DNA of 64,000 bases from NCBI GenBank assembly GCA_017516315.1, contig JAFXDE010000054.1, positions 15,251 to 79,250 on the forward strand, given 5' to 3'. This DNA comes from Clostridia bacterium (GTDB lineage: Bacteria; Bacillota; Clostridia; Oscillospirales; Acutalibacteraceae). Positions 5,084 through 21,841 of the stretch are shown one piece after another (the stretch's first letter is position 1; the number at the start of each line of letters is the position of its first letter). The notes under the pieces were generated by a model, which saw only the letters and a program-made list of their open reading frames with translations, was not told where the DNA came from and searched no databases. A program made the position numbers and the translations under genes.

Positions 5084-6565
5084 TTATCGTGCGTCGGTTT
5101 TTTCTATATCAAACCAGAATTCCACGCCGTTTTCTTTATTGATAACTCCGTATTTCTGCCCGTGAAGATCCTGAAGCTTTGCAACAATGGAAAGTCCTAA
5201 TCCGAAACGGCCTTCTGCACGGGAATGGGCCTTATCTGCCCGATAAAAGCTCTGCCAGATGTTTTCTATGTCTGAGCCAGGTATCTGTCTGCCCGTGTTA
5301 AAGACACTTATTCTGCAGAAGCTTTCCGTTTCCTGACAGGTAATAAGGATTTTTCTGTCGAAATCGATATGGCTGAGAGCGTTTGAAAGATAGTTGTTGA
5401 AAACATTTGACAAAAGCTCCGTGTCGCCGTAGCCGTAAAGCTTCTCGTCGATGCTTACCGAAACAGATGCACCGGTCTCTTTGATACGGTGGGTACGCAG
5501 ATCCACACATTCGCCGATAAAGGAGGCGATGTTGAAGGTTGTCTTGTTTACTCGGTAGTTTTCGGTACCGTATTGCAGATACTCCATAAGCCTGCATACG
5601 AGATGGTTCATTTTATCGGATTCCTCGAGTATGATGTCACAGAACTCTTCCGTGGAGTCGCAGCCGATTCCGTATTTCATTCCCTCGGCATAGCCCTGAA
5701 TAATTGAAATAGGAGTTTTAAGTTCATGGGAGACATTTGCCATAAAGGAACGCATGGTTTTTTCCATTCGCCTTTTCATTTCGATATCCATTTCCAGACG
5801 TCTGTTTTCACTCTGAAGCTCATTCATAGCGTTACTCAGAGAAACAGAAAGACTGTTAATGTTTGAGCCAAGCTCGTGTATTTCTTTTATTTTGAAGGGC
5901 GGACAGGTTTCGGTAAAGTCCATATTGATTATGCTTTTTGTTTTGTTGTTGATAATCAGAAGCGGATTGATAACCGAAGAAGCATAAATAACAGCGATAG
6001 AAATCAGAATAAAGCTTAAAACGACAGTAGTTACGAAAAATGCCCAGCTCGCTGTCATCGCATTAGCTTTAAGTGCATCAAGAGAGCGGTATATTTCAAT
6101 ACCGTTATTTTTACCGAAAAATACGCCGTAAACCATATACTGTGCCGATGTATAATGCTCCTGACGCATTTCAAAGTAGCTTCCGTCCTCAAGCTCGATA
6201 TGGGAATTAATTTTCATTATTCGGGGCTTGAGTTCTTCTTTTTTTCCTTTTTCGTCAGGCTCGTAAACTATATCATTACTGTCTGTGGTGTAAAAGAGTG
6301 TTTCTCTCGGAGAATAGATTTCTATGTAGACGTCTTTGTTTGTCTCTATTTCAGAAAGAATGCTTTTATAATCATCCTTTTTGAAATCTATTTCCATTAT
6401 CTGCTTGGAGCTTGCAATCATACTCTGCTGTGTGGCATAAATATAAAGGTCATCCATAAAAGCAAACTGTACAACACTTGAAAAGAAGAGAGCAATACAG
6501 AAGACAAGAATAACGACAAAGGATGTACGCCGTTTAAGCGGCGGTCTTTTCTTTTTAACTTTCAT
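5084..6565 (-). CDS. sensor histidine kinase
   Basis: Two TM segments flank an extracytoplasmic domain. H-box VSHELKTP and G-box GLGLSIV are present. Immediately downstream of the response regulator gene. Confidence 0.85.
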   Translation of the reverse strand: MKVKKKRPPLKRRTSFVVILVFCIALFFSSVVQFAFMDDLYIYATQQSMIASSKQIMEIDFKKDDYKSILSEIETNKDVYIEIYSPRETLFYTTDSNDIVYEPDEKGKKEELKPRIMKINSHIELEDGSYFEMRQEHYTSAQYMVYGVFFGKNNGIEIYRSLDALKANAMTASWAFFVTTVVLSFILISIAVIYASSVINPLLIINNKTKSIINMDFTETCPPFKIKEIHELGSNINSLSVSLSNAMNELQSENRRLEMDIEMKRRMEKTMRSFMANVSHELKTPISIIQGYAEGMKYGIGCDSTEEFCDIILEESDKMNHLVCRLMEYLQYGTENYRVNKTTFNIASFIGECVDLRTHRIKETGASVSVSIDEKLYGYGDTELLSNVFNNYLSNALSHIDFDRKILITCQETESFCRISVFNTGRQIPGSDIENIWQSFYRADKAHSRAEGRFGLGLSIVAKLQDLHGQKYGVINKENGVEFWFDIEKTDAR

Positions 6566-7246
6566 TTAGATTTCCTCTATTTTATATCCGATGCCGTAAA
6601 CGGTCTTAAGGTGCATGGCACCCCAGTCGCCGAGCTTTGTTCTGAGTCTTGCTACATGGGAGTCAACGGTGCGCACATCGCCCGTGAAATCATAACCCCA
6701 CACGCTGTCCAGAAGCTGCTCTCTGGAAAAGACTCTGCCGGGTGTTTCAAGGAACTTTTTCAGTATATTGTATTCCTTGAGGGTAAGGTCGATTTCCTTA
6801 CCTCCGAGACGTACCTCATGAGCATCATCGTTAAAGATGAGGTCATTGAAGTTTTTTTCACTGCTTGCTACTGCCTTTGAGCCGCTTCTTCTGAGAAGAG
6901 CTTCCACTCGTTTGACGAGGACGGACGGGCTGAAGGGCTTTGTTACATAATCGTCAGCGCCGGATTCATAGCCCATAAGCTCGTCGAATTCTTCACTTCT
7001 TGCCGTGAGGATAATAACGGGAAGATTTGAGGTTTCTCTGATTTTTTTTGTTACTTCCCAACCGTTGAGACCGGGCATCATTATGTCGAGAATAATGAGA
7101 CTCAGATTGCTTTTATGCTTTTCGAAAAGAGCATAGGCCTCGTCACCGTCCTCCGCTTCGATTACATTATATCCTGCCTGTCTCAAAAAATCGGACACAA
7201 GCTTTCTTATCCTTAATTCATCATCTGCTATAATAATATTTTCCAT
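6566..7246 (-). CDS. OmpR/PhoB-family response regulator
   Basis: Receiver domain (ILDIMMPGLNG) plus a winged-helix output domain (VDSHVARLRTKL, YGIGYK). Confidence 0.9.
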   Translation of the reverse strand: MENIIIADDELRIRKLVSDFLRQAGYNVIEAEDGDEAYALFEKHKSNLSLIILDIMMPGLNGWEVTKKIRETSNLPVIILTARSEEFDELMGYESGADDYVTKPFSPSVLVKRVEALLRRSGSKAVASSEKNFNDLIFNDDAHEVRLGGKEIDLTLKEYNILKKFLETPGRVFSREQLLDSVWGYDFTGDVRTVDSHVARLRTKLGDWGAMHLKTVYGIGYKIEEI

Positions 7247-18321: not shown

Positions 18322-18615
18322 ATGGCAGCTAAAAAGAAAAACGAATTTCTCACATATAAAGACAAACCCCTCGTAAGAAAGGGAAATACTCTTTACTACG
18401 GAAATATGAGTGACAAGTTTGTAGTTATGTTTCAGATTTTAAGCACAAAGGATGTTGACGGTCTGGCAGTGGCCGATAAGGTTTCCGTTCAGCTTATCAA
18501 TACTGACCCCGACGTAAGACCTCACGACAGAATCGCACAAAAGACAGAAAAGAAAGGTCTTTACGCCGCTATGGATATCGGCAGAATCTGGCTTGAAAGA
18601 GCTCTCGCCGAATAA
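18322..18615 (+). CDS. hypothetical protein (97 aa)
   Basis: RBS CAGGAGG, starts 16 nt after the ireB stop, and is followed by a terminator. No motif recognised. Confidence 0.55.
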   Translation: MAAKKKNEFLTYKDKPLVRKGNTLYYGNMSDKFVVMFQILSTKDVDGLAVADKVSVQLINTDPDVRPHDRIAQKTEKKGLYAAMDIGRIWLERALAE

Positions 18616-18626
18616 GAAAAAAGGAA

Positions 18627-18660
18627 GAGCTGTTGTCAAAAAAGGACAGCAGCTTTTTTA
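18627..18660 (+). terminator. rho-independent terminator
   Basis: Stem GCTGTTGTC / GACAGCAGC (one G-T pair), A-rich loop, TTTTTT. Confidence 0.7.
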
Positions 18661-18664
18661 ATAA

Positions 18665-18741
18665 CCGCACGTGGCGCAGCCGGATAACGCAGCAGATTCC
18701 GATTCTGAAGAACGGGGGTTCGAATCCCTTCGTGCGGGCCA
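18665..18741 (+). tRNA. tRNA-Arg (anticodon CCG), CCA encoded
   Basis: Manual cloverleaf of 77 nt: acceptor CCGCACG/CGTGCGG; D arm GCGC-AGCCGGATA-ACGC; anticodon arm GCAGA-TTCCGAT-TCTGA; T arm GGGGG-TTCGAAT-CCCTT; discriminator G plus CCA. Confidence 0.9.
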
Positions 18742-18749
18742 AAAAATCC
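18723..18749 (+). repeat. direct repeat copy 1 (tRNA 3' end, att-like core)
   Basis: AATCCCTTCGTGCGGGCCAAAAAATCC, identical to 21422-21448. Confidence 0.95.
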
Positions 18750-18777
18750 GACAAGTTTCGACTTGTCGGATTTTTTT
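18742..18777 (+). terminator. rho-independent terminator after the tRNA
   Basis: 10-bp stem ATCCGACAAG / CTTGTCGGAT followed by TTTTTTT. Confidence 0.8.
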
Positions 18778-18780
18778 ATC

Positions 18781-18985
18781 CAAGCCGACAGGCTTGGTAT
18801 ATCATCACGCGTCAGCGTGTATATCACCAACACGGCATAGCCGTGTTGTATCTCATCACACCTTCAGGTGTGTATATCTGTCGGCTTGATGATATGCAAA
18901 GCTTCGCATTGATGATATACAACTTCTTGCGAAGTTGATGATATGCAATTCCTTTGGAATTGATGATATACAAGGCTTCGCCTTG
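18781..18985. repeat. hairpin array 1: eight short hairpins with unique stems, separated by TATATCA (x4) then inverted TGATATA (x4) spacers
   Basis: Hairpins: 18781-96, 18806-19, 18828-48, 18857-72, 18897-911 (imperfect), 18920-37, 18946-62, 18971-85. Spacers: TATATCA-like at 18798, 18820, 18849, 18873; TGATAT(A/G) at 18890, 18913, 18939, 18964. Confidence 0.85.
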
Positions 18986-19149
18986 ATTTGATTTTCAAAC
19001 ATTCACCAACACGATTCTAATTTATGCTTTTTAATAGAGAAGTAAGCCAAAAATATACAAGGTAATTCTGAGAAAACACTTGATTGTTCTATATTGAAAA
19101 TATGATCTTTTGTAATCTGTTTTTTATGTTTATAAAACAATAAAAAGCA

Positions 19150-19178
19150 TTGACATTAAAATTAATTTTTGTTAATAT
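19150..19178 (+). promoter_or_regulatory. sigma-70-type promoter of the surface protein gene
   Basis: TTGACA (19150-55), 17-nt spacer, TAATAT (19173-78). Confidence 0.5.
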
Positions 19179-19233
19179 TTTCTTAGAGTGGAAACAATCC
19201 CTCTGAAAAACACATTATGAAAGGATGAGAAAA

Positions 19234-21186
19234 ATGAAAAAAATTATGGTAATTGTTTTGTCGGTGCTTATGGCGTTTTCTGTTATGCCTATGGCGTTTG
19301 CTCAGGATGCACATAACTGTGTTGATGCAGATAACTGCCTTGTTTGCTATATTGCAGAGCTCATCAATTCTCTGCCGGAAGCAAAGGACATTTCTGCAGA
19401 AAACGCAGCAGAGGTTACTGATACCATTCATGCAGTAGACTGCGTGAAATTTGAACTGACTGACGAAGAATATGATGAACTTCTCAGTCTTGTTGCTGCA
19501 GCTGAAAATAGCAATGGCGGTTTGCCTGTGCCTAAGGCATATATGGAAGCTCTGAATGCTATTGTTAATCTGGATGACGGCTGTTCATTCCATATTTCAA
19601 AGGATGTATTATTAAAGGGAGAAGATATCTATGATCTCAGTGAAGCCTATGTTGCTTTTGAGATTACGGGAGAAAACGGCTACTGTTCAACTCTCACTCT
19701 CAGAGATGCTGTTCAGGGCGTTTTTACTCTTGACGAATCGCAGGTTGCTTCCGTGGACTTCTTTACCGCTACTCTTGCAAGCTTCGAGGGATATTACACT
19801 ATGGATAAGCAGGGCTGGACTTATTCATACACACTTCCTGCAGGTACATATACCATTAAAGAGGTTACCGATTCAATGATAATCAACGGTACAGAATACA
19901 CAGACGCTACTGTTTCATTCAACGGTGAGTCTGCTGAAAGCTATACCTTCATATTAAAAGAAGGTGAGGATGTTTCTCTGCTTATCGGAAACTATTACGA
20001 CGGAGAAATAAACATCTGGTATGAAGCAAACGGCGGTGAAGGTGAAATGTATCCTGATATCGCTACCAGATATAACGAATTCACTCTCTCACCCAATGCC
20101 TTTACAAAAACCGGCTATGTTTTCAAGGGCTGGAGCGATGATATAGGCAATTCTTATGATGATGGTGGCACATATTACTTTGATAATTCTACAACTTTAT
20201 TTGCTCAGTGGGAAGAATGTACCGAGCACATCTGGAGCGACGGCACTTGCTCAAAATGCGGCACAGAATGCTCTCACGACACAATGACATCTGAAATTAC
20301 CGCACGTCCCGAAAGCAGTGATGGCATAAGCTGGTCAAAGGGTGAAAAGACCTATACCTGCACCTGCGGATATAGCTACGCTCAGGAAGCTGACCGTGCA
20401 GATTATTCCGAATATATCAAGGCAGCTTTAGAGTTTGCAGAACTCGCTTCCACAGAAGGTCTTACAGATACAGCTAAAATAAGCATAGCGGCTGACTATG
20501 CCGATCTTGGAGAGCTTGCACAGAATCTCATTACAGACGAGCAGAAAATCGTTGACGATTATGTTGCCGGCTTAAAGGCTCTTATTGAAAAGATTAAAGC
20601 AGGTATAGCGGACGGATCTTATCTTAAGGCTGACTATACAGAGCTTGAAGTAGCTATTGATGAGCTTGAAAAAGTTCTTGCTGAAAACGAAGCTCTTCTT
20701 ACCGAAAAGGCTGTACAGGAGCTTAAGGATGCTATTGCCGATGCTGAAAGCACCGACAAAAACCTTACAAAGAGTGCTCAGGATACAGCGATCCTCGATG
20801 CTGCCGTAAAGGCTGCCAAGGATGCCGCTGTGCTTGATGATAGTGATTTCAGAGTTGACACCACTGAAGCAGAAAAGCTTATTGTCGAGCTTGAAGAAAA
20901 AGAGATAGCCGATGAAGCTCTTAAAGCTGAAATTGAAAATATCAAGGCTGAAATTGAAAAAATCAAGGCCGACAAAAATGCTTCCAAGGCTGAATACGAT
21001 GAGGTTGTTGGTGGATATGTCAACCGACTTCAGGAAATCAAGAGCGTGATTAATAATGAAGATGAGTTCCGTTGCGGAATGTGTGACACTTATGAAAAGA
21101 ATGCAGACACACCTGTTATCGGCATTATCATGAAGATTATTCATTTCTTTGTTCACTTTGCTCAGCTTATCTCTTTCAAATCATAA
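19234..21186 (+). CDS. secreted surface protein with InlB B-repeat-like module, Cys-rich segments, helical repeats and a C-terminal hydrophobic tail
   Basis: Signal peptide MKKIMVIVLSVLMAFSVMPMAFA. The YEANGGEGEM...GYVFKGWSDD...LFAQWEE module looks like a Listeria-Bacteroides repeat. Several CxxC pairs and a long acidic helical region with KAEIENIKAEIEKIKAD repeats. The terminal VIGIIMKIIHFFVHFAQLISF is hydrophobic, and there is no LPXTG. Confidence 0.7.
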   Translation: MKKIMVIVLSVLMAFSVMPMAFAQDAHNCVDADNCLVCYIAELINSLPEAKDISAENAAEVTDTIHAVDCVKFELTDEEYDELLSLVAAAENSNGGLPVPKAYMEALNAIVNLDDGCSFHISKDVLLKGEDIYDLSEAYVAFEITGENGYCSTLTLRDAVQGVFTLDESQVASVDFFTATLASFEGYYTMDKQGWTYSYTLPAGTYTIKEVTDSMIINGTEYTDATVSFNGESAESYTFILKEGEDVSLLIGNYYDGEINIWYEANGGEGEMYPDIATRYNEFTLSPNAFTKTGYVFKGWSDDIGNSYDDGGTYYFDNSTTLFAQWEECTEHIWSDGTCSKCGTECSHDTMTSEITARPESSDGISWSKGEKTYTCTCGYSYAQEADRADYSEYIKAALEFAELASTEGLTDTAKISIAADYADLGELAQNLITDEQKIVDDYVAGLKALIEKIKAGIADGSYLKADYTELEVAIDELEKVLAENEALLTEKAVQELKDAIADAESTDKNLTKSAQDTAILDAAVKAAKDAAVLDDSDFRVDTTEAEKLIVELEEKEIADEALKAEIENIKAEIEKIKADKNASKAEYDEVVGGYVNRLQEIKSVINNEDEFRCGMCDTYEKNADTPVIGIIMKIIHFFVHFAQLISFKS

Positions 21187-21262
21187 CATAAGAATGACAG
21201 AACAATTCAAGATGTGAACAGTGCTATATCTTGTTGCCAAATTGACCTGTAAACACAAAAAA

Positions 21263-21298: not shown

Positions 21299-21310
21299 AG
21301 ATACAATCAA

Positions 21311-21440
21311 CCGAAGGGATTTGAACAAGGAGGGAGCGAAGCGGAAGAAAACAGTCCGGTGGACTGTTTTCGCCGACATGGCAACGAGCTTGCGAGGCGA
21401 TAGTGCGGTAGCACGGGACAAAATCCCTTCGTGCGGGCCA
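21311..21440 (+). other. structured noncoding segment ending in a tRNA-Arg 3' fragment (pseudo-tRNA / att arm)
   Basis: CGAAGGGATTT (21312-22) is the exact inverted complement of AAATCCCTTCG (21421-31). An 11-bp hairpin lies at 21347-21371. Weak, mostly transition-type similarity to the tRNA body lies upstream of the exact repeat. The segment cannot fold as a cloverleaf. Confidence 0.5.
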
Positions 21441-21448
21441 AAAAATCC
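21422..21448 (+). repeat. direct repeat copy 2 (tRNA 3' end, att-like core)
   Basis: Identical 27-mer to 18723-18749. Confidence 0.95.
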
Positions 21449-21471
21449 AAGTCTTCGGACTTGGATTTTTT
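21441..21471 (+). terminator. rho-independent terminator (diverged paralogue of 18742-18777)
   Basis: 9-bp stem ATCCAAGTC / GACTTGGAT, TTCG loop, TTTTTT. Confidence 0.75.
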
Positions 21472-21472
21472 C

Positions 21473-21640
21473 AGTTATGTCCGCAGAACATAACTTCAGT
21501 CAGCGGCATTTATGACGCTGACTTCATTACGGCCTTTAGCCGTACTTCATTTGTCGGACATAAACGAATGAAGTTACCTTACGGTAAATGAGTGCTGTCG
21601 CAATAAAGTGGCTTTGCCAATGAAATGTGCCTACGGTACA
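21473..21640. repeat. hairpin array 2: same architecture as array 1, with ACTTCA (x3) then inverted TGAAGT-like (x3) spacers
   Basis: Hairpins: 21473-95, 21498-523, 21528-44, 21575-86, 21609-19, 21626-40. ACTTCA at 21493, 21521, 21544. TGAAGT/TGAGT/TGAAAT at 21569, 21589, 21621. The central 8-bp stem ACTTCATT/AATGAAGT encloses 21552-66. Confidence 0.8.
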
Positions 21641-21811
21641 ACGGCTTGACTTTTTCTATTCTCACACCGATTGTAATTCAGCATAAAGTGTGATATAATC
21701 ATCCCGATAAAGTCGGGTGAATTCAAGCTCAGCTATCGACTTTATTATCTTGCCGAGCATCGAAAGGGTGGGGCATCAATCAGTAATATTCAGTAAAAAA
21801 TACAACAAAGA

Positions 21812-21841
21812 TTGACAGAATATTGCATTTCATTGTATAAT
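21812..21841 (+). promoter_or_regulatory. near-consensus sigma-70 promoter of the sigma factor cassette
   Basis: TTGACA (21812-17), 18-nt spacer, TATAAT (21836-41). The ORF-track start at 21812 is the TTG of the -35 box. Confidence 0.65.

Follow-up and report, generated by a model that had tools for sequence, protein, structure and literature searches.

A strand-polarised hairpin-linker array at tRNA 3′ ends in gut Clostridia and its possible role as a module boundary

What is the chain of small hairpins that follows a tRNA-Arg gene in a 64,000-nt stretch of a Clostridia genome (Acutalibacteraceae; assembly GCA_017516315.1, contig JAFXDE010000054.1, positions 15,251 to 79,250), in which the stems differ while the short linkers between them are conserved and change orientation halfway? 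The whole stretch is called here the window, and the chain array 1. The analysis gives good support to the view that array 1 represents one copy of an intergenic element, modular and multi-copy, which is found in gut Clostridia of the Oscillospirales type. It also seems secure that the family marks the boundary at which accessory modules of 1-3 genes, stacked one behind another, adjoin a tRNA gene or its displaced 3′ fragment. As a whole, array 1 is tentatively best explained as a boundary element of such tRNA-anchored modules, similar to the bacterial interspersed mosaic elements (BIMEs) and acting as a two-way polar barrier. Full-text literature searches found no published description of the array family, an absence which is not proof of novelty, and the family is apparently undescribed so far.

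Anatomy of array 1 and of its family

Reading the window base by base from 18400 to 19400 showed that array 1 consists of eight hairpins at 18780-18985. These are the eight of a preliminary description made from the sequence, which had set the start at 18781, one base too late. As that description had it, the array lies directly behind a tRNA terminator. The tRNA-Arg(CCG) gene (18665..18741, + strand; ARAGORN; Rfam tRNA 53 bits) is followed, at the base directly 3′ of its CCA, by the repeat block of array 1. This opens with terminator T1 (18742..18777, + strand), composed of an A-run, a hairpin and T7, and the dinucleotide AT separates it from the first hairpin, H1. The T1 hairpin (18747-18770) has a 10-bp stem and a UUCG loop (TCCGACAAGT-TTCG-ACTTGTCGGA) and qualifies as an intrinsic terminator, bidirectional by its sequence. 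Hairpins of the T1 type (tcgacaagtttcgacttgtcga and variants) are also located 5′ of arrays behind other tRNAs.

H1 (18780-18797, + strand, CCAAGCC-GACA-GGCTTGG) has a stem of 7 bp and the loop GACA. In the left block (18798..18879, + strand), the linkers TATATCAT, TATATCAC, TATCTCAT and TATATCT are interleaved with H2 (18806-18819, 5 bp, loop GTCA), H3 (18828-18848, 9 bp, loop ATA) and H4 (18857-18872, 6 bp, loop TTCA). The orientation flips at the centre, TGTCGGCTTG (18879..18888), which is the exact reverse complement of CAAGCCGACA, that is, of the 5′ arm and loop of H1 (18781-18790); this flip at a centre complementary to H1 had been recognised before. In the right block (18889..18985, - strand), the linkers ATGATATG, ATGATATA, ATGATATG and ATGATATA are interleaved with H5 (18897-18911, imperfect with an A·A mismatch, loop TTC), H6 (18920-18937, 7 bp, loop TTGC), H7 (18946-18962, 7 bp, loop TTT) and H8 (18971-18985, 6 bp, loop TTC). 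There are four linkers of each consensus, TATATCAY on the left and ATGATATR on the right, and the right-block units are left-type units read on the - strand. The 14-mer TTGATGATATRCAA has four exact copies in the 64-kb window, all inside array 1.

Hairpin density and fold energy place array 1 far beyond chance. The window contains 120 perfect hairpins (stem at least 6, loop 3-6), about 0.47 per 250 nt, whereas 250-nt intervals at 18700-18950 contain 10-11; the runner-up is a second array at 21.3 kb with five. Compared with dinucleotide shuffles, the fold energy of array 1 has z = -10.5 on the + strand and -9.9 on the - strand. No promoter-like site was found inside the window arrays by a consensus scan, and no AT-rich unwinding region or AT-rich centre was seen when the sequence of array 1 was read. 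In Rfam only the tRNA is above threshold and, at E ≤ 10, the other matches are at chance level (18-20 bits); weak matches to C/D-box snoRNAs were traced to UGAUGA in the linker.

The preliminary description had proposed a search for the same architecture in other genomes, and a scan of one genome per species recovered at least 120 loci. The pattern used needs two right-type motifs, and all counts given for the family refer to the matches listed. The hosts, all of them metagenome-assembled genomes (MAGs), are nearly all labelled Acutalibacteraceae, Oscillospiraceae, Eubacteriales or Clostridia, and come from ruminant and other animal guts. Some genomes contain 2-4 arrays within 8 kb, and there are cases of several array contigs from one MAG. 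A viral collection of 2.9 million contigs included three true copies, two of which flank a prophage attR on the host side; the third (L017) is located in a satellite-like element that encodes serine recombinases as well as a D5-type primase-helicase. Nothing similar to the array was found in plasmid and phage collections.

Among 125 parsed arrays, the order of left (L) and right (R) motifs is LLLRRR in 51, LLRRR in 22 and LLLRRRR in 10, and 27 have right-type units only; in none of those listed does a right motif precede a left one. Right-type-only arrays L020, L128 and L139 are found in varied contexts, flanked by GC-rich hairpins such as TAACGGGTCGTCGAGGACGTCGACCCCTACA that resemble repetitive extragenic palindromic (REP) sequences, and a tandem repeat of GGGGCCAAGGGG is located behind one array (among L020, L128 and L139; L025 about 100-190, - strand). 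The canonical layout is an A-run, terminator hairpin and T-run, then H1, 2-4 left units, the centre, 3-4 right units and often a promoter.

Each unit is a short GC-rich hairpin of 13-23 nt with an 8-10-nt G-free linker, TATATCAT(CA); in oligonucleotide form the repeat unit is a hairpin followed by TATATCATCA. The segments between linkers form perfect end-to-end hairpins in 256/286 right and 121/163 left cases, with 0-2 in shuffles. The 449 units include 254 distinct hairpins. The stems differ from one another within array 1, as had been described, whereas across the family they form recurring families (CACGC.., CACACC.., CAATTCC.., CAAAAC.. and others), and the loops vary more than the stems. 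Compensatory change, which the preliminary description had put forward as a check, was examined in an alignment of 41 canonical arrays covering five hairpins. These are 95.4% paired and have 180 double-change cells compared with 60 in shuffles, a value reached by none of 500 shuffles. Compensatory change thus keeps the hairpins intact. The linker columns of the aligned arrays are 95-100% identical.

The order of units differs from array to array, and certain linker variants go together with given hairpins: TATCTCAT follows a long hairpin and ATGATATG stands ahead of CAATTCC. This linkage indicates that the unit is a hairpin with its 3′ linker on one strand. On the favoured strand the loops are of the G..A type (GAA, GCA, GTA, GGA, GCAA, GTAA, GTCA and GTTA), closed by C-G in about 85% of cases, and 60% are triloops. 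The complementarity of H1 and the centre is also a property of the family: the H1 5′ arm and loop have an exact complement of at least 10 nt in the centre in 73 of 93 arrays, with several alleles and few chimeras. The covariation score of this helix is 0.367, compared with 0.113 in shuffles, and includes a column within the H1 loop.

Right blocks are identical between two arrays of one genome yet different between genomes (L056, L057), which suggests concerted evolution, and chimeric or hybrid arrays exist (L022, L116 and L120). The architecture is kept with other linkers in at least 15 of 23 further tRNA-operon ends in the fetched loci. The alternative linkers include TATGTAATC/GATTACATA, ATTTCA/TGAAAT, CATCAT/ATGATG and ATATCAC/GTGATAT, and hairpin-less relatives also occur, such as repeated TTCACT followed by repeated AGTGAA; in all these versions the two blocks are reverse complements of each other. 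In the hairpin-less loci L037, L061 and L071, described as tandem heptamers, TTCACT or ATTCAT is repeated 4-6 times, followed by a short centre and by 3-5 copies of AGTGAA or ATGAAT, right behind the tRNA terminator.

Two further ways of pairing the blocks were rejected. A ladder or four-way-junction fold, with left linkers paired to right linkers, was drawn by RNAalifold, but it shows no covariation, the common linker variant TATCTCAT is uncompensated in it, and the blocks favour opposite strands. Kissing loops between blocks were also dismissed, as no two loops of the window array are complementary to each other.

Strand polarity, tRNA ends and accessory modules

Three measures agree that both blocks are tuned on the strand whose 5′ to 3′ direction leads to the centre. 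In the left block, G..A loops are seen on the + strand, whereas in the right block the loops are T..C on the + strand, that is, G..A on the - strand. Single mismatches, read on the + strand, are 14 G·T and no A·C in left blocks, and four G·T and 10 A·C in right blocks. Left hairpins are more stable on the + strand (44 versus 12 with RNA parameters, 40 versus 6 with DNA parameters) and right hairpins on the - strand (46 versus 13 and 50 versus 10, respectively), with p ≤ 0.0012 in all four comparisons. The common polarity of loops, mismatches and energies favours an action as folded single strands and speaks against the presence of the whole structure in a single molecule.

The position of the arrays is equally regular. 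Of 90 arrays with upstream sequence, 44 are placed behind a complete tRNA gene, with 21 anticodons represented, in a survey of tRNA ends that is partly ascertained; most others follow a tRNA 3′ fragment ending in ..CCA or one of a few recurrent module ends. The 249-nt block of terminator and array in the window (18742-18990) has full-length matches of 88-90% identity to blocks in other species that begin at the first base past their tRNA-Val, -Gln, -Thr, -Cys and -Arg genes. An intrinsic terminator is always located 5′ of the array. On the other side, 29 of 77 arrays (2.2 expected) have a promoter fused to their last unit, with a -35 element, TTGATT, formed by the TTG of the last hairpin and ATT, and the downstream gene is co-oriented with the array in 63 of 75 cases. 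Downstream genes vary, with a four-helix-bundle family after about 13 arrays and XRE regulators after about 10. Modules composed of an array, 1-3 genes and a terminator are found in tandem beside tRNA clusters (L057, L061, L065, L123 and the window), each with its own terminator and promoter.

The window contains one such module. The last 19 nt of tRNA-Arg (27 nt including the A-run, AAAAAATCC) at 18723-18749 are repeated directly at 21422-21448, where 0.02 matches are expected by chance. The 27-nt repeats enclose a 2.7-kb one-gene module without an integrase, with array 1 at its head. It contains, in order, T1 and array 1, a promoter-like site, a gene for 653 aa, the terminator of this gene and a unit of about 120 nt. 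The promoter-like site (19150..19178, + strand; TTGACA, 17 nt, TAATAT, with TG) lies 165 nt past array 1 and is thus separate from it, unlike the fused form of other family members. The cargo gene (19225..21186, + strand) encodes a protein with a Listeria-Bacteroides repeat domain (Pfam PF09479), and its N-terminus (MKKIMVIVLSVLMAFSVMPMAFA) reads like a signal peptide. The right end of the module (21299..21448, + strand) is formed by the unit of about 120 nt, which opens with an inverted T-loop-like copy (gaagggatttgaac), followed by the 27-nt copy of the tRNA-Arg 3′ end; no copy of the array motif is present in this unit. In three strains (L001, L003 and L007) and in other species (L073, L123 and L135), the unit adjoins tRNA-Arg directly.

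The locus 3′ of tRNA-Arg is hypervariable within the window species. Strains were compared through contigs with an identical 97-aa protein encoded just 5′ of tRNA-Arg. The locus of L004 is identical to the window. L003 has a variant of array 1 behind a tRNA fragment and a different cargo, and L002 has a prophage with its integrase at tRNA-Arg and ordinary direct-repeat arm sites, the hairpin array being absent. These differences indicate that the 2.7-kb integrase-less module with array 1 is present in some strains and missing in others. The earlier suggestion of an inserted element is therefore borne out in part, by the tRNA 3′ end duplicated 2.7 kb away and by strains without the segment. No gain or loss of the array alone was seen between strains of the window species.

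A second terminator and array 2 (21441..21640, + strand; the array itself at 21474-21640) follow the displaced tRNA 3′ fragment. This UUCG terminator reads CCAAGTC-TTCG-GACTTGG, and the linkers of array 2 are CTTCA(T/G) three times and then ATGAAR twice, so that the flip and the architecture of array 1 are kept. Near-complementarity is again seen between the centre of array 2, GTCGGACATAA, and its first hairpin. Array 2 is partly degenerate in the window strain; better-kept copies of its type are located directly 3′ of the tRNA in L005, L006 and L008, where the 2.7-kb module is absent.

Gene families shared near the arrays were sought by all-against-all clustering of 1,440 open reading frames (ORFs) within about 4 kb, and only cargo genes were shared. 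Searches over the same distance with integrase and serine recombinase queries (tblastn) and the clustering showed no tyrosine or serine recombinase beside the roughly 120 arrays, apart from unrelated cases, and no rep, replication or transfer genes are located near them. Pfam scans of the window neighbours showed no recombinase or Nop domain. For Y1/HUH/RAYT transposases, nothing below E = 0.4 was found by tblastn in the window and 139 loci, a weak test with IS608 TnpA-like and RAYT-like queries.

Several other recurrent sequences were observed around the arrays. A family of small proteins of 114-119 aa (MSKNYLLIYSEQLATDIELLC...ANIREANYGQS...), presumably similar to the "four-helix-bundle/23S rRNA intervening sequence" proteins, is encoded directly 3′ of arrays behind different tRNAs (L043, L047, L055, L056, L059, L072, L126, L127, L137 and L138). 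The unit at the right end of the window module (21299-21421) belongs to a unit of 120-150 nt that recurs 3′ of tRNA-Arg(CCG) (L001, L003 and L007 at about 6430-6590; L073, L123 and L135). It starts with gaagggattYgaac, has an internal terminator-like hairpin (aaaacagtccggtggactgtttt) and ends in a tRNA 3′ fragment; it has no Rfam match and could be a remnant of an attachment (att) site or a small RNA. A sequence of about 25 nt, TTGTTGCYAWTTTRAGCTRTAAACAC, stands just 5′ of the A-run and terminator that open an array in L049, L056, L059, L078, L110 and L123, with a copy of this type in the window behind the 653-aa gene (21229-21256), and may be a conserved module end or an element of a 3′ untranslated region. 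A second module end of this kind is GGTTTTCAGGCACATTTCATTCGTGTCATTAAGTTCAAACTACCC (L057, L065, L068 and L126). In L027, L028, L044, L124, L132 and L064 (about 2460-2570), the last hairpin ends in GTG and is followed by a conserved T-loop-like module (GATTTATGCAAGAGTTCGAATTCATACGC...) and not by a promoter, and in L064, L071 and L133 a pseudo-tRNA 3′ end (..GGGGTTCGAATTTGTGC..TTCCA) joins successive arrays.

Near array 2, a promoter-like site with TG is found at 21671-21699, and a consensus-perfect promoter (TTGACA, 18 nt, TATAAT) at 21812-21841, 5′ of an ORF with a weak match to sigma-70 region 2. As to the contigs searched for strains L001-L010, half of the collection blocks with the 97-aa protein hold only contigs below 5 kb, and many contigs stop at tRNA-Arg, often less than 1 kb past it. 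The arrays and variable modules thus evidently break short-read assemblies.

What the array may do

The reading that we prefer, with some reserve, is that of a BIME-like boundary element acting as a two-way polar barrier. The hairpins would work in folded single-stranded form and would not serve as binding sites in duplex DNA. The favoured strand of each block would be the nascent RNA made by a polymerase that enters the gap from the side of the block, or just as well its non-template DNA strand, so that inward-moving polymerases would underlie the polarity and termination or insulation would be the effect. The left block would assist the terminator in stopping read-through out of the tRNA operon, which is highly transcribed, the right block would halt antisense transcription leaving the acquired cargo towards the tRNA, and the cargo promoter would restart transcription past the barrier. 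The linkers would be read by a sequence-specific partner, which their near invariance implies. It is the tuning of both blocks on strands pointing at the centre that leads to a two-way polar barrier, and the position between terminator and promoter, the inward polarity and the need to insulate an essential tRNA fit with it. Taken by itself, this inferred mechanism is doubtful.

Several points weigh against the barrier. Transcription of either block is presumed, a strong terminator already stands 5′ of the left block, and there is no obvious driver of leftward transcription into the right block because the downstream genes are co-oriented. The linkers are not U-tracts, and thus the units are not canonical intrinsic terminators, while a pure hairpin barrier would need neither 10 invariant linker bases nor the complementarity of H1 and the centre. 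The polarity itself has its limits: the G·T asymmetry of the right blocks is by itself not significant, the 14 left-block G·T cases represent only about 8-9 independent lineages with counts that are not fully independent, and the equal asymmetry under RNA and DNA energy parameters does not separate the two molecules. GNA/GNNA loops (the GNA triloop closed by C-G) are classic for stable DNA mini-hairpins and not typical of RNA terminators; that the terminator hairpins here use UUCG loops and the array hairpins GNA/GNNA is a hint and not a test. Finally, the family was sampled with a pattern needing two right motifs, from hosts which are all MAGs.

The setting at tRNA ends could also be that of a cis-acting recombination site, although we consider this unlikely. 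The array would then be the arm beside the crossover, in the tRNA 3′ end, of integrase-less modules served by a recombinase in trans; the linkers, 10-12-bp repeats that face both ways, would be bound by this recombinase as arm-type or accessory sites or, in an integron-like version, the folded hairpins themselves would be the substrate. The 27-nt duplication round the 2.7-kb module and the strains differing by whole modules would be accounted for, as would the placement of most arrays behind tRNA genes or ..CCA fragments with an exact start at the end of five tRNA species, the tandem modules beside tRNA clusters and the occurrence of one cargo family (the putative four-helix-bundle) behind different tRNAs. 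Different linker types could match different recombinase subfamilies; the lambda and HK022 integrases have common arm sites and different core sites. Yet no tyrosine or serine recombinase is found beside any array, unrelated cases apart, and the one true prophage at tRNA-Arg (L002) uses ordinary direct repeats as its arm sites and lacks the hairpin array. The two sets of motif orientations are on the same side of the core, the opposite module end lacks a motif copy, and motif spacing from 22 to over 35 bp indicates that helical phasing is not kept. Binding to duplex DNA, moreover, explains neither the compensatory stems nor the strand asymmetry. This tells equally against the possible arm-type or iteron sites of the preliminary description, for which neither an integrase nor a Rep gene was found within about 4 kb of some 120 arrays. 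There is only a slim chance that the arrays mark a hitherto unrecognised gene-capture platform, in which small promoter-bearing modules would be inserted serially at tRNA 3′ ends and a trans-acting recombinase or nuclease would read the array, folded on either strand, as single-stranded DNA (ssDNA); the array would then be a functional analogue of the integron attC site with another architecture and anchor. Comparably slim is the case for selfish DNA of the REP/REPIN kind, whose units a trans-acting HUH/RAYT-type transposase would recognise, the inverted blocks resembling a REPIN doublet and any cellular effect being a by-product. Multiple copies within genomes, the concerted evolution suggested by the right blocks of L056 and L057, shuffled unit order with chimeras or hybrids (L022, L116 and L120), strand-specific hairpins with loops typical of stable DNA hairpins, and right-type-only arrays in varied contexts beside REP-like hairpins (L020, L128 and L139) are what such repeats would produce. 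No Y1/HUH-like ORF was detected in the loci or the window, by the weak test given above, and strains of the window species show no array-only presence and absence. The strong specificity of position and orientation for tRNA ends and module boundaries has no counterpart in any REP known to us, and variable stems with fixed linkers reverse the REP pattern.

An active fold of the whole array in one non-coding RNA or ssDNA molecule, whether multi-branched or a protein sponge as the preliminary description had it, is improbable. The very low fold energy on both strands, the covariation of the hairpins and of the H1-centre helix, and the ladder of linker-linker helices from RNAalifold speak for it. 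These ladder pairs never covary, though, with the frequent TATCTCAT variant uncompensated, and as the blocks are optimised on opposite strands no one strand has all the favoured hairpins; on these grounds the multi-branched fold finds no support. The sponge RNA fares no better, since the array lies past a strong terminator and ahead of the next promoter, with no promoter-like site inside; Rfam is blank even at E ≤ 10, and the number and order of units vary. Very improbable, too, is a pair of priming signals on opposite strands, similar to the single-strand initiation (ssi) sites or single-strand origins (sso), for outward DNA synthesis of a mobilised or replicating module. The favoured strands, taken as templates, would direct synthesis away from the centre, as ssiA and ssiB of RSF1010 likewise lie on opposite strands; the loop types are those of stable DNA mini-hairpins, and the L017 array is in an element encoding a D5-type primase-helicase. 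Replication and transfer genes are nevertheless missing near about 120 arrays, as is an AT-rich unwinding region, and the plasmid and phage collections are blank, with just the three true copies among 2.9 million viral contigs. Least credible is an invertible switch, in which the 11-bp inverted repeats (H1 5′ half and centre) flanking the left block would allow an inversion to a uniform direct array of seven units. Its geometry is exact, with a full hairpin at the centre after inversion, and the inverted repeat is kept across alleles; still, a single state is seen in about 90 arrays of different species and in every strain of the window species, none being flipped, and no invertase gene is nearby. 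Two other candidates were rejected. One was a mini-transposon with split ends, for which no arrangement of left block, cargo and right block was seen; the other, prompted by the G-free, UC-bearing linkers, was a Rho-loading (rut) scaffold, in which about two-thirds of the bases would be locked in hairpins.

Provided that this description is correct, non-coding DNA of an abundant and highly ordered class has escaped annotation in a major group of gut and rumen Clostridia. The arrays at tRNA 3′ ends would mark the most variable places of these genomes, where they punctuate stacks of accessory modules and break metagenome assemblies. Invariant linkers, free but paired stems, a polarity flip and a long-range complement make an unusually clean combination, which points to a specific reader, that is, a protein or process acting on single strands. 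The outcome might be an insulator or termination device, a recombination site or a selfish repeat of a new kind. In addition, the linker motifs provide a simple marker for hypervariable loci and module boundaries in these MAGs.

Comparison with known systems

Array 1 is placed outside CRISPR, classical REP/BIME, attC arrays and ordinary iterons, as had been proposed from the sequence, and it is blank in Rfam. CRISPR loci have direct repeats of 23-55 nt, unique non-palindromic spacers and cas genes, whereas here the conserved segments measure 8-12 nt, the variable ones are palindromes and the orientation flips. Unlike iteron origins, the arrays have no rep gene nearby, no AT-rich centre and no similarity to plasmids or phages. 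TIGR arrays have stems flanking paired variable guide spacers of 8-12 nt with box C/D bounds, next to a tas gene with a Nop domain (PMC12045711; bioRxiv 10.64898/2026.09.09.750476). The likeness to them consists in tandem stem arrays with palindromes that vary in sequence yet are always present, in a short conserved 12-mer that begins with UG and ends with CA, in the occurrence in gut Clostridia and in being missed by repeat finders. The present arrays differ in their conserved inter-stem segment, loops of 3-4 nt, orientation flip and lack of a tas gene.

Further comparisons concern REP/BIME, attC, attP arms, the Neisseria NIME (intergenic mosaic element) and dRS3 repeats and pneumococcal BOX. 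Similarly to the integron attC sites, such as the Vibrio cholerae repeats (VCR), which were first noticed as enigmatic repeated palindromes, structure is conserved here while sequence varies, and tandem co-oriented one-gene modules are punctuated at a fixed anchor; in integrons, the sites are folded single strands used strand-selectively. However, an attC is a single imperfect palindrome of 57-141 nt, R″/L″...L′/R′ (RYYYAAC...GTTRRRY), with extrahelical bases, whereas the array is a chain of perfect 13-23-nt hairpins with loops of 3-4 nt. No IntI, attI or adjacent Pc promoter is found at the arrays, the anchor is a tRNA gene, and the arrays stand at the 5′ boundary of modules with their own terminator and promoter, with halves that favour opposite strands.

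The attP arms of lambda and HK022 type and the stacked, integrase-less, cis-mobilisable elements share with the arrays a crossover in the tRNA 3′ end with a second copy of it at the far end, a 10-12-bp motif that is present several times and faces both ways, an arm conserved beside different tRNA cores and tandem stacking. They differ in that no integrase or excisionase is adjacent here, all copies are on the same side of the core, palindromes are maintained between the sites and the spacing is unphased. NIME/dRS3 and BOX are likewise modular intergenic mosaics (in the A-Bn-C style), with terminal complementarity and a position at gene 3′ ends, and the Neisseria repeats double as targets of recombination or integration. 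Their sequence and unit logic are unrelated, and they have neither the tRNA link nor opposed hairpin-linker blocks.

From the enterobacterial BIME/REP (palindromic unit, PU) class the arrays differ in several respects. REP stems are conserved in sequence, whereas here the stems vary and the linkers are fixed; BIME units alternate in orientation, whereas a single block-wise change occurs per array; and units of about 35 nt in REP compare with 13-23 nt here. The long-range complement of first hairpin and centre, the tight junction with tRNA 3′ ends, the frequent fusion to a promoter and, by a weak test, the lack of a RAYT gene also set the arrays apart. On the other hand, both are extragenic mosaics of short palindromes joined by conserved linkers, as are REPINs, both are multi-copy and found in both orientations past the terminators at the ends of transcription units, and both have hairpins kept by compensatory change, with roles in attenuation or as boundaries proposed. 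Although it has neither the conserved palindromes nor the alternation of that class, the element thus has its closest described relatives in the extragenic palindromic mosaics of the BIME/REP kind.

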